Of a stretch of DNA of 64,000 nt, positions 13,800 to 50,013 are shown piece by piece. The notes beneath the pieces are model-generated. The model did no database searches. It saw only the letters and a list, made by a program, of their open reading frames with translations, and was not told where the DNA came from. Source of the DNA: Nanobdellota archaeon (GTDB taxonomy: Archaea; Nanobdellota; Nanobdellia; CSSed11-243R1); contig JAGGWW010000006.1 in assembly GCA_021163365.1 (NCBI GenBank), positions 4,123 through 68,122 of the forward strand, given 5' to 3'. Position 1 is the first letter of the stretch. Every line of letters begins with the position of its first letter. Made by a program: the position numbers and the translations under genes.

Positions 13800-13981
13800 G
13801 GGGCCGTGGTCTAGCAAACCCTTTCTTCCGAAGAAAGCCTTGGGAAAGAAGGGTTTGGGCAACTTGGTCTAGGATGCGTGCCTGGGGCGCACGTGGTCCC
13901 GAGTGACCCTTTTCTTAAGAAGAAAAGCGTCAACGGAAAAGAACTTAAATTGGTCCGGGAATTCAAATCTCGGCGGCCCCA
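13800..13981 (+). tRNA. tRNA-Pro(GGG) with two non-canonical introns (D-loop and T-loop)
   Basis: Acceptor GGGGCCG/CGGCCCC plus A73. Anticodon stem-loop CGTGC-CTGGGGC-GCACG (GGG at 13884..13886). T-arm CCGAG...TTCAAAT-CTCGG split by ~58 nt (13904..13961). D-loop split by ~50 nt (~13816..13865). Exact splice boundaries unresolved. Confidence 0.5.
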
Positions 13982-14021
13982 CTTAAAAAACTTTAAATCA
14001 ATCAATTGCTTTTAATTTTAC

Positions 14022-14534
14022 ATGGAATTTTTTGATGTTTTAAAAAATAGGCATTCTATTCGCTCCTTTAAACAAAAAGAAATAGAAGAAGATAAACTAA
14101 AGAAAATAATTGAAGCTGCAATATCTGCACCCTCTGCTGGAAATTTGCAATCGTATGACATTGTTGTTGTAAAAAATCCATTTAATAAAGAAAGAATTGC
14201 ACAAGCAAGCTTAAACCAAGATTTCATTGCAGAAGCACCAGTTGTTTTAATATTCCTTGCAAACAAAAAAAGAGCATCAAAATATGGAAAAAGAGGAAAA
14301 GAACTTTATTGTGTGCAAGATGCAACAATTGCTGCAGCATACTCACAGCTTGCAGCTGTTGATTTGGGGCTTTCAAGTGTTTGGATTGGTGCATTTGATG
14401 AAGAAAAAATAAGAAAAATAATAAAAGCTCCAGATTATGCAATACCAGTAGCCATATTACCAATAGGTTACCCAGCTGAAGAACCGTATAAAACACAAAG
14501 AAGAAAGGATGTGATTCATGATGAAAAGTGGTAA
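14022..14534 (+). CDS. nitroreductase family protein
   Basis: LKNRHSIRSF N-terminal nitroreductase signature. 170 aa. Confidence 0.7.
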   Translation: MEFFDVLKNRHSIRSFKQKEIEEDKLKKIIEAAISAPSAGNLQSYDIVVVKNPFNKERIAQASLNQDFIAEAPVVLIFLANKKRASKYGKRGKELYCVQDATIAAAYSQLAAVDLGLSSVWIGAFDEEKIRKIIKAPDYAIPVAILPIGYPAEEPYKTQRRKDVIHDEKW

Positions 14535-14667
14535 TAGGATATTTAACTTGTTTGCTGATGGTGGGGATGAAATAATAAAATTCATTAAAAAAAGCAAATG
14601 GCATGCTTTATTAATTGGCTTTTTGTGCTTTATCTCACCAGTAAATTTAATTATGTGGATTATGGTA

Positions 14668-47042: not shown

Positions 47043-49825
47043 AATTTCTCTTAAACAAAGGCTGATGATTTATGATAATAAAATAGTGCCTTGAGCACCA
47101 ATGGTTTTTTCTTGTGAGTCAGCCTTTTATGTGTGCTTCCTGATCATACGATCTGGAAGCAAAAGGCATCCTCTTAACATGTTCAGCATGTTAATGATGC
47201 CGTGCATAGGGGAGCACCAGAATAGGCACTACGCTGCCAGGTGGATGGCTCGGCTCAGAAGCTGATGAAGGGCGTGGCAAGCTGCGATAAGCCTGGGGTA
47301 GCCGCACGCAGGCTAAGATCCCAGGATTCCCGAATGAGACTTCTTGGCATGCAGTAATGCATGTCACTCGGGTTGGTGATGAGCTAACCCGAGGAGGAAC
47401 TCCGCGAATTGAAACATCTTAGTAGCGGAAGGAAAAGAAATCAATTGAGATGCCGTTAGTAGGGGCGACCGAAAGCGGCATAGGGCAAACTGAACCATAT
47501 ATCGCAAGATATATGGGATGTGGTGTTTGGGAGCTGCGTATGCCAACTTCAAGGTGAAGCTGAACTCTGCTGGAAAGCAGGGCCATAGAGGGTGATAGCC
47601 CCGTAAGCGTAAGCCAAGAAGTTGGCGCAGTTTCCAGAGTACGCGGGGTTGAGATTCTCCGCGGAAATTGGGGGGCAATAACCTCCAACCCTAAATACTC
47701 TCTGAGACCGATAGCGAATTAGTACCGTGAGGGAACGCTGAAAAGTATCCAGAAATGGAGGTGAAAAGAACCTGAAACCTGGCAGCTACGGTATGCTGCG
47801 GCTCAAAAGGCTACTTCCTGAGCGAAGCTGTCGAAAGGCAGTTTTAGCAAAGGAAGTAGTTCCAGGGTTGCAGCGTTCCTTTCGGATAAAGAGGCAGGGA
47901 GTTTGTCTCAGTGGCGAGGCTAAGCTCAATTAAGAGCGGAGCCAAAGCGAAAGCAAAATGCGCGCAATCAGGGTTCTGATGAGGCGCTGCGTACGAAAGT
48001 GCGCGTAGTCACTGGGACAAGACCCGAAACCGCACGATCTACGCCTGGCTAGGACGAAATGAGGGGTTTCTCCCTCATGGAGGTCCGTAGGGGTGCTGCC
48101 TTTCAAAGCGCTCCCATGAGCTGGGTGTAGGGGTAAAAGGCCAATCATGTGCGGTGATAGCTGGTTCCTCCCGAAATGAGTCTCAGCTCAGCCCTACCAG
48201 AGCTTGCTAAGGGGGTAGAGCACTGATTGCGTATGCAGGGGTCGAGAGGCCTCGGTACGCAGTCAAACTCCGAATACCTTAGCAGCTAAGAAGGTAGGAG
48301 TGGGGGCACTGGGGTAAGCTCGGTGTCCAAGAGCGGAACAACGCAGACTGGAGTTAAGGTCCCAAAATGCTGGCTAAGTGATTTCGAACTTTGTCACCAG
48401 CCACAGACAGCCGGGAGGTAGGCTTAGAAGTAGCCATCCTTTAAAAAGTGTGTAACAGCTTACCGGTCGAGGCTGTTGGCGGGGAAAATGGACGGGTCTT
48501 AAGCCAGCTACCGATACTCCAGACCAGGATCCTTTGGATCCTGTGTGGTAGGGAGGCGTGTCGCATGGGCAGAAGCTGGTTCGTAAGGACCAGTGGACCG
48601 TGCGATAATGAGAATCCTGCCGGTAGTAGTAGCCTAGATGGGTGAGAATCCCATCCGCCTTAAGAGCCAGGGTTCCTCGGCAATGCTTCGTCAACCGAGG
48701 GTTAGTCGGTCCTAACCCATGTGGTAATTCCAACATGGGGAAAGGGAAGCAGGTTAATATTCCTGCACCACCTGGATACGTTCGGCAACGAAGGCTTGCC
48801 CAGTGACGCTTGGGGATAGGCAGAGCAGCACCGTCGTGCTGTTTAACAGGGATAAGTCCGGGGAGTTCTGTAATGGAGAGATCCGGACTAAACCTGGAAT
48901 AGCTGGCGTTTGCCAGTTCTGCTGATTCCTCGAGCCCGTGAAAAGCTGGGCAAGAAGGAGTCCAGGTGTCCGTACCGAGAACCGGGACAGGTGTCTCGGG
49001 CTTAGAAGGCTAAGGCGTGTAGGGATAAGTCAGTCAAGGGAAATCGGCAAATTAGCCCCGTAACTTCGGGAGAAGGGGTGCCTGCGACAGTGATTCGATG
49101 AGAATTGTTGTCGCAGGTCGCAGTGACTAGGGGGGCTGGACTGTTTAACAAAAACATAGCTGGTTGCTAATCCGAAAGGATTTGTACAACCGGCGACGCC
49201 TGCCCAGTGCCGGTATCTGAAACCCTGGTTCAACAGGGCTAAGGACCGGTAAACGGCGGAGGTAACTGTAACCTTCTTAAGCAAGCGCAATGCCTTGCCA
49301 TTTAAATGATGGCTTTGCGAACGGCGTAACTAGGTCCCCACTGTCCCTGACTGACACCCTATGAACACACTATTCTGGTGCAAAGGCCAGAGACTCCCAT
49401 TGGGACGATAAGACCCCAGGAGCTTTACTACAGCCAGTACTTGCGTTTCAGGTTTTGGTGTATAGCGTAGGCAGGAGACGTCGAAGCACCCACGCTAGTG
49501 GGTGTGGAGTCGCCAATGTAACACTGCCCACCTGGATCTGGAGCGCTAACTTCAGGGAAAACCTGAAGGACAGGTATTGGTGGGTAGTTTGGCTGGGGTG
49601 GCACGCCCGCGATAAGGTATCACGGGTGCCCTAAGGTCGGCTCATCCGGGTCAGAAATCCGGAGAAGAGCGTAAGGGCAAAAGCCGGCCTGACTGTGTGT
49701 CAGACAGAAAGACACGCAGGGGCGAAAGCCGGGCCTAACGAACCACAGTGCCCTTTTATTGAGGGCCTGTGATGACCGAAAAGCTACCCTGGGGGTAACA
49801 GAGTTGTCGCGGACGAGAGCTCATA

Positions 49826-49912
49826 CAACCTTTCTTTTGAGAAAAGAAACGTTGACGAAAGAAAATTCTCTTTGGTCAAGCTTTCTCTTTTCAAGAGAAA
49901 GGTTGGCGCATA
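49826..49912 (+). other. 23S insertion 1 (putative intron, ~87 nt) at the conserved GAGCTCAYATCGAC site
   Basis: AACCTTTCTTTTGAGAAAAGAAACG...GCTTTCTCTTTTCAAGAGAAAGGTTGGCGCAT carries two copies of the CTTTC..GAAAG hairpin. It lies between GAGCTCATA and TCGACTCCGCGG. This is the same region where archaeal 23S introns are known. Confidence 0.55.
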
Positions 49913-49968
49913 TCGACTCCGCGGCTTGCTACATCGACGTCGGCTCCTCCCATCCTGGCTGTGCAGCA

Positions 49969-50013
49969 AACCTTTTCTTAGAAAGAAAAGCTTTACCAAA
50001 AGAAAAGGTCTGA
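49969..50013 (+). other. 23S insertion 2 (putative intron or expansion) within the H93-equivalent hairpin
   Basis: ACCTTTTCTTAGAAAGAAAAGCTTTACCAAAAGAAAAGGTCTG lies between CCTGGCTGTGCAGCAA and AGGCAGCCAAGGG. ACCTTTTCTT is exactly complementary to AAGAAAAGGT. Confidence 0.4.

Follow-up and report, generated by a model that had tools for sequence, protein, structure and literature searches.

The question raised by this locus is what the short hairpin-forming insertions are that interrupt almost all of its stable-RNA genes, and how they came to be there. The window analysed here is a stretch of 64,000 nucleotides (nt) from a Nanobdellota archaeon (contig JAGGWW010000006.1 of assembly GCA_021163365.1, positions 4,123 to 68,122), and it carries ten tRNA genes as well as one 16S and one 23S rRNA gene. 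Reading of the ten tRNA regions together with the rRNA alignments yielded 20 insertions of 15–87 nt, 15 of them in nine of the ten tRNA genes, three in the 16S and two in the 23S rRNA gene (Table 1). It appears probable, at roughly 80%, that these are 20 introns of the bulge-helix-bulge (BHB) type which are spliced by proteins, and that nine to 13 of them are built on one module of ~37 nt, which is old and widespread in archaea and quickly turned over. A first-pass annotation of this stretch had counted at least 19 insertions of 30–90 nt. It was right about the nine interrupted tRNA genes, about tRNA-His as the only intact one and about the two insertions in the 23S; total and size range had to be revised, and it had seen only two of the three insertions in the 16S, the one at 42500-42542 having been missed.

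In-silico removal of the insertions restores canonical genes. ARAGORN recognised only two tRNAs in the raw window, and all ten, with sensible anticodons (Pro-GGG, Tyr-GUA, Asp-GUC, Lys-UUU, Asn-GUU, Ile-UAU, Glu-UUC, Leu-UAA, His-GUG and Ala-UGC), after the insertions had been taken out. The rRNA insertions are visible in the Rfam alignments, where the 16S gene has 1649 nt for a model of 1478 positions (+171 nt) and the 23S gene 3145 nt for a model of 2987 (+158 nt), with 89 nt where the 23S model has two and 48 nt where it has one. The whole 16S shares 89.8% identity with that of L026, a syntenic contig of 'Nanobdellati archaeon S014' (L-numbers denote loci fetched from other contigs), and its first 721 nt share 95.8% with a contig (L029) of the metagenome-assembled genome (MAG) 'Nanoarchaeota archaeon AUK188', the labels of MAGs being those under which they were deposited. 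In L026, 16S introns b and c are absent to the nucleotide and intron a is present, and b and c are therefore both dispensable for a mature 16S rRNA. We take the 16S sites a, b and c to correspond to about positions 793, 908 and 1079 in E. coli numbering, and the two 23S sites to about 2477 in the loop of helix 89 (H89) and about 2530 in that of helix 91 (H91).

That the insertions are retained in the mature RNAs as expansion segments, or that the interrupted genes are pseudogenes, is highly improbable. The Ala and D-loop introns, which lack a clean BHB, would fit such an idea, but the insertions fall within the T- and D-loops and the anticodon stem of tRNAs, the 790 loop of the 16S and the H89 and H91 loops of the 23S and break up universally conserved sequence, as had been stated before. 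Apart from these breaks the exons are intact, with the scores of full-length rRNAs and tRNAs, and the 4-mers of exon and intron that would guide splicing co-vary. Moreover, these are the sole rRNA genes in the 64 kb, and the tRNAs would otherwise be missing. The rRNA introns are also not of the homing-endonuclease kind, as with 43–87 nt they are too short for any open reading frame (ORF), including one for a LAGLIDADG protein.

The junctions were scanned for two 3-nt bulges flanking a helix of 4 base pairs (bp), with a spliced product that had to equal the mature sequence. A near-universal arrangement was found, in which the four exon nt before the 5′ bulge pair with four nt near the intron 3′ end. 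The strict motif with helices on both sides (hBHBh′) could be drawn for seven introns (Lys, Ile anticodon, Leu anticodon, Leu T-loop, Asp anticodon, Glu anticodon and 16S b) and a relaxed BHB (HBh′) for eight (Pro D-loop, Pro T-arm, Asn T-loop, Tyr, 16S a, 16S c, 23S a and 23S b). For module copies in related loci, the first nt of the module hairpin was set as the third bulge nt or the next one, and an exon-matching 4-mer was sought downstream. A strict BHB (4/4 central helix plus an outer helix of at least 3–4 bp) resulted for 82% of 28 anticodon-loop copies and 63–68% of 19 T-loop copies, as compared to 4–10% in flank-shuffled controls; D-loop copies gave the relaxed form only. The first hairpin nt is the first intron nt in 23 of 36 BHB-positive copies, and the BHB-positive copies comprise 19 distinct pairs of exon and guide 4-mers, in which both partners co-vary. 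Copies that could not be placed in RNA genes exhibited BHBs at background level, and the module is therefore not intrinsically an intron.

As most junctions take a strict or relaxed BHB form, splicing by EndA and RtcB appears to be the best reading. The earlier proposal that the insertions are removed as BHB introns is thus supported in silico, by the junctions that can be drawn and by precise presence or absence in relatives. The four exon nt before the 5′ splice site would form the central helix with four nt near the intron 3′ end, and a 3-nt bulge on each side would house a splice site. The inner helix would be provided by the hairpin of the intron itself and the outer one by exon structure (anticodon stem, T stem or rRNA helix), and D-loop sites and some rRNA sites, having no outer helix, would give relaxed motifs. 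Cleavage of both bulges would fall to EndA and ligation of the exons to RtcB. The module would be tolerated in essential RNA genes in that a 4-nt exon match suffices for spliceability.

Whether the insertions form one family was assessed with a covariance model of the shared core (R1 in Table 1; significance at E < 1e-3). Nine introns and a copy in the 16S leader, outside mature RNA, match significantly; 16S c is marginal (E 0.9), and the R1-negative Asp anticodon, Asp D-loop and Glu D-loop introns were recognised as degenerate relatives by eye only. Seven of the 20 introns (Tyr, Lys, Ile anticodon, Glu anticodon, Leu anticodon, Ala and 16S b) are unrelated in sequence, so that the idea of a single family holds for the nine introns, the leader copy and, in degenerate form, four more introns, and fails for these seven. 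All ten significant matches are in sense orientation within stable-RNA genes or the leader, which amount to ~5% of the two-strand search space, and no significant R1 match was obtained in coding or other intergenic sequence of the window. The near-identity of copies in unrelated genes was borne out: the Asn D-loop copy agrees with the 16S copy at 34 of 35 positions and with the Ile D-loop copy at 31 of 33, the Asn T-loop copy with the leader copy at 23 of 25, and the Leu T-loop with the Pro D-loop intron at 37 of 49. The Asp D-loop intron corresponds to the Glu D-loop intron plus an internal segment of 26 nt (31/31 aligned positions identical).

Table 1. Interrupted stable-RNA genes of the window, their predicted introns and the copy in the 16S leader. 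Positions are those of the window; tRNA sites are given in brackets where assigned.
Feature	Position	Strand	Length (nt)	Relation to core	Predicted junction	Support
tRNA-Pro(GGG), two introns	13800..13981	+				ARAGORN after splicing
Pro D-loop intron (about 15/16)	13815..13862	+	48	family core	central helix 4/4, intron helix 9 bp, outer exon helix 1-3 bp by register	R1 13814-13851, 21.4 bits, E 2.6e-4
Pro T-arm intron (53/54)	13904..13961	+	58	family core	central helix 4/4, intron helix 4 bp, outer exon helix absent	R1 13902-13943, 49.5 bits
tRNA-Tyr(GUA)	17884..17981	+				Rfam tRNA 61.5 bits; ARAGORN after splicing
Tyr anticodon-loop intron	17920-17945	+	26	unrelated	outer 5, central 3/4, intron helix 3	BHB
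tRNA-Asp(GUC), two introns	17983..18159	+				ARAGORN after splicing
Asp D-loop intron	17998..18054	+	~57 (ends +/-2)	degenerate relative	no clean BHB	CCCUUUCCGC...GAAAGGG hairpin
Asp anticodon-loop intron (37/38)	18078..18124	+	47	family-like by eye	outer 7, central 4/4, intron helix 11	R1 not significant
tRNA-Lys(UUU)	18801..18901	+				ARAGORN after splicing
Lys intron (30/31)	18832-18858	+	27	unrelated	helices 4/4/5	strict BHB
tRNA-Asn(GUU), two introns	37732..37908	+				ARAGORN after splicing
Asn D-loop intron	37747..37792	+	~46 (uncertain ends)	core type A	relaxed solutions only	R1 37744-37786, 54.5 bits
Asn T-loop intron (59/60)	37838..37894	+	57	core type C	outer 5, central 4/4; 6-bp intron helix shifted by one bulged U	R1 37837-37875, 45.1 bits
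tRNA-Ile(UAU), two introns	38611..38764	+				ARAGORN after splicing
Ile D-loop intron	38625..38674	+	~50 (uncertain ends)	core type A	relaxed options only	R1 38623-38664, 52.8 bits
Ile anticodon-loop intron (37/38)	38697..38728	+	32	unrelated	5/4/4	strict BHB
tRNA-Glu(UUC), two introns	40018..40173	+				ARAGORN after splicing
Glu D-loop intron	about 40033-40063	+		degenerate relative		likeness to Asp D-loop intron
Glu anticodon-loop intron	40089-40138	+	50	unrelated	7/4/5	strict BHB
tRNA-Leu(UAA), two introns	40366..40513	+				ARAGORN after splicing
Leu anticodon-loop intron	40406-40420	+	15	unrelated	6/4/2	strict BHB
Leu T-loop intron (59/60)	40453-40499	+	47	family core	5/4/11	strict BHB; R1 40451-40488, 21.9 bits
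tRNA-His(GUG), uninterrupted	40523..40595	+				ARAGORN and Rfam on raw sequence
Family copy in 16S leader	41419..41462	+				R1 41419-41456, 27.9 bits, E 3.5e-6
16S rRNA gene, three introns	41586..43234	+				Rfam SSU_rRNA_archaea, 1455 bits
16S intron a, between GGAUUAGAU and ACCC (790 loop)	42335..42380	+	46	core type A	both bulges AUA; central helix UUAG/CUAA 4/4	R1 42333-42375, 46.9 bits
16S intron b, between GCUGAA and ACUUAAAGG	42500..42542	+	43	unrelated	helices 3/4/2	strict BHB
16S intron c, between CCGUG and AGGCGUCC	42708..42752	+	45	family-like	central helix 4/4, intron helix 10, outer helix 1	R1 only 9.1 bits, E 0.9
tRNA-Ala(UGC)	46671..46784	+				Rfam tRNA 59.7 bits; ARAGORN after splicing
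Ala anticodon-loop intron	46708-46749	+	42	unrelated	no good BHB; internal loop beside 14-bp hairpin	tRNA plausibility
23S rRNA gene, two introns	47217..50361	+				Rfam LSU_rRNA_archaea, 2765 bits
23S intron a, between GAGCUCAU and AUCGAC (H89 loop)	49825..49911	+	87	core at 5′ end	both bulges AUA; central helix 3/4, intron helix 14 bp	R1 49824-49864, 24.1 bits
23S intron b (H91 loop)	49970..50014	+	~45	family core	relaxed; central helix 3/4, intron helix 9	R1 49966-50005, 20.7 bits

The module consists of a hairpin, 5′-NNAC-C-CUUU-(C plus a variable apical stem-loop of 3–8 bp)-AAAG-C-GUNN-3′, followed by a purine tail of 8 nt, ACGGAAAR. In every copy the four nt before CCUUUC are complementary to the GUNN within GCGU-NN-ACGG. 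Across a gapless alignment of 43 distinct copies 92% of the cells are paired, a level which none of 500 shuffles reached. The basal pair occurs in all four Watson-Crick types (CG 12, UA 12, AU 11, GC 5), the second pair as AU (34), CG (7) or GC (2) and in no copy unpaired, and the apical stem alternates between CGC/GCG in type A and UUU/AAA in type C. The covariance model found 196 matches in ~1 Mb of fetched loci plus the window; among the 124 distinct ones the basal helix is 97.6% paired, and the C.C mismatch, the A after the hairpin (A30) and the tail CGGAAA are near-invariant (119–124 of 124 sequences). The sole difference between the cores of the Asn D-loop and the 16S copy is a nt that compensates a change in the 5′ flank. 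The hairpin base adjoins the 5′ splice bulge, the first hairpin nt often being the first excised one.

A second pairing, between the pyrimidine strand CUUUC(CG) and the tail CGGAAAG, excludes the hairpin. In type A this tail-paired fold is predicted to be 4–12 kcal/mol more stable than the hairpin, and in type C the two folds are close. The U-run and the A-runs in hairpin and tail change in length together (3/3/3 in 69 copies, 4/4/4 in 15; Spearman 0.37–0.53). A pseudoknot of basal and tail helices was rejected on geometry: helices of 6–7 bp and 4 bp cannot be bridged by connecting loops of only 2 nt and 1 nt, so that each pairing rules out the other. In addition, the purine strand of the hairpin and the tail form a mirror repeat, as in an intramolecular purine-motif triplex; owing to the near-symmetry of the tracts, triplex and Watson-Crick pairing of the tail look the same at the level of sequence.

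Several known kinds of element were compared with the module and rejected. An inner BHB does not fit, as its two loops of 3–4 nt lie opposite each other and are not offset by 4 bp. A kink-turn (K-turn) would require G.A pairs beside one of the internal loops and a layout of a 3-nt bulge with tandem G.A, both of which are absent. The C (RUGAUGA) and D (CUGA) boxes are not part of the consensus, CUGA occurring only in the apical variant of the window, and a C/D-like stretch at 41307-41374 showed no complementarity of at least 10 nt to rRNA. A hammerhead core is absent on inspection. For group I and II introns and small self-cleaving ribozymes, Rfam gave no match over the introns even at E ≤ 10, apart from spurious ones below threshold. 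CRISPR (clustered regularly interspaced short palindromic repeats) units, which the hairpin with its 8-nt handle ending in GAAAG might bring to mind, are not supported, as multi-copy loci are irregular or consist of tandem 55-nt units with identical 18-nt linkers, and unique spacers are missing. A pairing of guide and cleavage site in the style of IS200/IS605 was dismissed because the 4-nt 5′ strand lies within the intron and not in the target.

The conservation of the unpaired and mismatched positions (C.C, A30 and tail) and the maintenance of two exclusive pairings raise the idea that the module is a functional RNA, namely a protein-binding site, a two-state switch for the timing of splicing or a stabiliser of transcript ends. 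The 790 loop, H89/H91 and the D- and T-loops, for example, might be held inactive until assembly has advanced. The position of introns at functional centres of 16S and 23S and the copies at gene ends are in line with this. Site contents are, on the other hand, readily lost or replaced (the 16S b site compared with L015, L039 and L051; tRNA-Leu and tRNA-Glu of L026), no single copy is therefore essential, and no partner protein was identified. This makes a dedicated function somewhat unlikely.

Several points weigh against the reading as BHB introns on a conserved module. Splicing, cleavage sites and circular introns are all inferred from sequence. Four D-loop introns and the Ala intron allow several competing registers (3/4 central helix or no outer helix), and since none of them has a unique BHB, their boundaries rest on tRNA plausibility only. 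In the hairpin fold, the tail of 8–13 nt intervenes in the strand that should be unbroken between intron helix and central helix, and the tail-paired fold leaves 5–6 unpaired nt between intron helix and bulge unless a 3′-terminal complement is present. The alignments of the module were collected with search patterns in which much of the core is fixed and with a hairpin-fitted model, so that only the free columns carry independent covariation, and the aligned sequences are not phylogenetically independent. Finally, neither EndA nor RtcB was found among the 53 of 67 window ORFs (at least 120 amino acids) that were scanned with Pfam.

The module is not confined to the window. A scan with the exact pattern CGCGCAAAGCGTNNACGGAAA of one genome per species in GTDB yielded 25 archaeal contigs, labelled as Aenigmatarchaeota, Nanoarchaeota, Woesearchaeota, Thermoplasmata, Methanocellales and Methanosarcinales, and five bacterial matches, which look like chance. 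Nearly all archaeal matches lie in genes for tRNA (canonical as well as non-canonical sites), 16S, 23S or RNase P RNA. With a looser pattern at least 120 metagenome contigs were found, which brings the public contigs to at least 150 overall. The 16S and 23S genes on module-bearing contigs share 65–80% identity with those of the window, and the element therefore spans very deep divergences. Its hosts comprise tRNA, 16S, 23S, 5S and RNase P RNA genes and, in addition, tRNA trailers, rRNA leaders and intergenic DNA. The 5S gene at L033 1910-2089 (likewise those in L137 and L149) has 180 nt for a model of 120 positions and contains a module insertion between CCCAU and UUCGAAC, for which a relaxed BHB (UCCC/GGGA) is plausible; a literature search returned no report of introns in archaeal 5S rRNA. 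In the RNase P RNA gene of AUK188 (L031, about 7137-7480, minus strand) a type A module insertion of 43 nt follows GAGGAAGUUCGUCCACC and is absent from the gene of the window; a second insertion is probably present upstream of P3. The P3 helix of the window's own RNase P RNA (53906-53940) resembles the pyrimidine/purine hairpin of the family. The metagenomic rRNA operon of L051 (27-6639), with a 16S of 2070 nt and a 23S of 4067 nt, contains at least four module copies.

The near-identity of copies had been interpreted as recent spread, that is, as a mobile mini-intron family specific to this lineage whose burst of transposition in this genome is recorded in the copies. Such a burst would fit copies in unrelated genes that are 92–97% identical over 25–35 nt and differences in the occupied sites between close relatives, and comparable transposition of tRNA introns is documented for Thermoproteales (Fujishima et al., 2010, as summarised in PMC4090602). 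However, the same core is found, as well conserved and with compensatory changes, in contigs of only 65–80% 16S identity, so that the age of an insertion cannot be read from core identity. That the only difference between the Asn and 16S copies is a compensatory pair points to selection, and outside the core the 3′ parts of the copies differ. A recent burst is thus distinctly unlikely, and the near-identity would reflect constraint on the core rather than necessarily recent spread.

What is quickly changing are the contents of the sites. Compared with the window, the tRNA-Leu gene of L026 has an extra D-loop intron and a module-bearing anticodon-loop intron, its tRNA-Glu gene contains different family members at both intron sites, and the D-loop intron of its tRNA-Ile is 97.6% identical to the 16S-leader copy of the window. 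The leader copy itself is missing at this place in L026, and a different family copy occupies the place in AUK188 (L029), whose tRNA-Asn has a different D-loop variant and an extra anticodon-loop intron. Among other loci, the 16S a site with its core recurs in L026, L088 and L140, the 16S b site holds family-core introns in five other organisms (L015, L039, L051, L129 and L140), and the sites of 23S introns a and b are also occupied in L078, L081 and L093 and in L009, L062 and L078, respectively. Between close relatives, module introns are thus rapidly gained, lost and exchanged, with sites being reused while their contents change. The D-loop introns of Asp (17998-18054) and Glu (40033-40063) and the 5S intron of L033 (about 2010-2025) share an identical 3′ end, GGGUGGGGAAAU; this common end suggests that 3′ guide segments are swapped between introns as well.

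Copies outside RNA genes bear on the way in which the module moves. At L098 3557-3710 three tandem units of 55 nt (module plus identical 18-nt linker) directly follow a stop codon, paired units of the same kind lie at or beside a stop codon at L095 1363-1461, and none of them has a BHB. Other copies abut tRNA 3′ ends (L022 and L096) or lie upstream of start codons (L047). Intergenic and tandem copies occur in other organisms and not in the window. At L096 7867-8114 the last ~22 nt of a tRNA and the module are duplicated ~200 nt apart, which looks like an integration footprint or a tandem duplication at the tRNA 3′ end. Relative to crudely called upstream ORFs, 24 intergenic copies lie on the same and 17 on the opposite strand, which is not decisive. 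The presence of BHB-less copies behind stop codons and tRNA 3′ ends, in tandem arrays and in an rRNA leader would agree with a dispersed repeat at the DNA level, similar to repetitive extragenic palindromes (REP) or miniature inverted-repeat transposable elements (MITE), which an enzyme mobilises, which lands anywhere and which is kept in RNA genes only where a BHB repairs the transcript. On this view, the RNA structure would simply follow from a palindrome in the DNA; the hairpin is indeed a near-palindrome, and gain of archaeal introns has been suggested to proceed at the DNA level (PMC4090602). This idea is nonetheless more doubtful than promising. All copies in the window and those in RNA genes elsewhere are sense-oriented, and the C.C mismatch and the one-sided purine tail mark a strand-asymmetric element. 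No target-site duplication and no recurrent gene next to intergenic copies were seen, and IMG/VR viral contigs gave no module match. An insertion into a single-copy rRNA gene must moreover be spliced at once, which blind insertion of DNA does not provide.

Most likely, the module is a dispersed RNA hairpin that is either selfish or bound by a protein. A further-reaching proposal, which we put forward tentatively and hold at somewhat less than even odds, is that it represents an undescribed ancient RNA element of archaea, centred on DPANN and with two conserved folds, which spreads by using the tRNA-splicing endonuclease as its exit from the transcript. If so, it would colonise every essential class of structural RNA (tRNA, 16S, 23S, 5S and RNase P RNA) as well as untranslated regions, as a mobile element of a new kind that needs only a 4-nt exon match at a new site; a protein partner of its own or a triplex-like fold would then be possible.

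Parts of this picture are already known, namely dense non-canonical BHB introns of tRNAs in DPANN (PMC5829648, PMC3239211), hairpin introns in crenarchaeal 16S (PMC4496867) and transposition in Thermoproteales (PMC4090602). The transposed tRNA introns of Thermoproteales (Fujishima et al., 2010, Mol Biol Evol 27:2233, in the summary given by PMC4090602) likewise occur several to a gene, with gain inferred after speciation, and as with introns of that type near-identical copies lie here at different positions of non-orthologous tRNAs; sites 30/31, 53/54 and 59/60 are catalogued non-canonical intron positions of archaeal tRNAs (PMC4090602). In comparison with what that summary describes, the introns here share a structured module with covariation, which extends across 20–35% 16S divergence rather than one order and is also present in 16S, 23S, 5S and RNase P RNA and at non-intron sites. 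Short hairpin BHB introns of less than 50 nt are known from the 16S of Thermoproteales and Desulfurococcales (Jay and Inskeep, 2015, PMC4496867). They too are hairpins without ORFs that have retained the BHB and occur at a restricted number of 16S loci, and their locus 908 is the site of 16S intron b. Unlike in our case, no common core with tRNA introns is described for them, the sites at about 793 and about 1079 are outside the 13 loci of that study, and the co-conversion by a neighbouring homing endonuclease which it invokes has no such gene to rely on here. Disrupted tRNA genes and EndA variants of broad specificity are on record for DPANN (Fujishima, 2011, PMC3239211; Kaneta, 2018, PMC5829648). 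Many of these introns are non-canonical or multiple with relaxed BHBs, which fits the D-loop and rRNA junctions described here, but the papers treat the enzyme and intron positions and not a conserved intron body. As heavily disrupted tRNA genes of DPANN had thus been reported (PMC5829648), the first-pass view that such a density is rare outside Thermoproteales is not supported.

With REP/MITE-like repeats of bacteria, the module shares the short imperfect palindrome, the many copies, the frequent location just after genes and the tandem arrangement. It differs from them in being strand-asymmetric, in its sense orientation in every copy of the window and of RNA genes, in acting as a presumably spliceable intron in essential RNA genes, and in that neither an associated transposase nor a target duplication was found for it. 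Another structured intron is that of archaeal tRNA-Trp, which carries a C/D box small RNA. In both cases the intron body is conserved as a structured RNA; the module, however, has no C or D boxes and no K-turn and is not tied to one host gene. A structure-conserved intron body that spans phyla and RNA classes, is also present outside introns and has two folds was not found in the searchable literature, a search that left most subscription journals outside, and the module is absent from Rfam 15.

For the question of how archaea gain their BHB introns, an intron body that can be recognised offers a traceable marker at dozens of sites, in five RNA classes and in many lineages, for which insertion sites, empty sites and the exon-matching guide are directly comparable. 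It also explains why standard tools lose most tRNAs in such lineages (two of ten were found here) and why their rRNA genes are oversized, and annotators could use a covariance model of the module to locate these introns and take them out. Should the module bind a protein or switch folds, the functional centres of the ribosome would harbour a new RNA for regulation or for the control of assembly.

Regarding the host, the 16S matches to AUK188 and S014 identify the organism as a DPANN archaeon. G+C is ~32% apart from the rRNA genes, where it is 54–57%, and the source is a low-GC DPANN archaeon with a small genome. Rfam detected archaeal 16S, 23S and RNase P RNA (53886-54183) as well as five tRNAs at gathering score. 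The protein genes are ordinary housekeeping genes, among them those for RNA polymerase, ribosomal proteins S12 and S7, topoisomerase VI and pyruvate:ferredoxin oxidoreductase. Genes for Ku (PF02735) and an ATP-dependent DNA ligase lie next to each other at 6161-7941 and form a non-homologous end-joining pair in a small-genome archaeon. At 9871-13539 a Hel308-like DEAD-box helicase is split by an intein with a LAGLIDADG domain. Between 16S and 23S (43235-47216) four ORFs are located, encoding a metallophosphoesterase, an HD-domain protein and two proteins without Pfam match, and tRNA-Ala directly precedes the 23S. The anticodon of tRNA-Ile (38611-38764) is UAU and not CAU.

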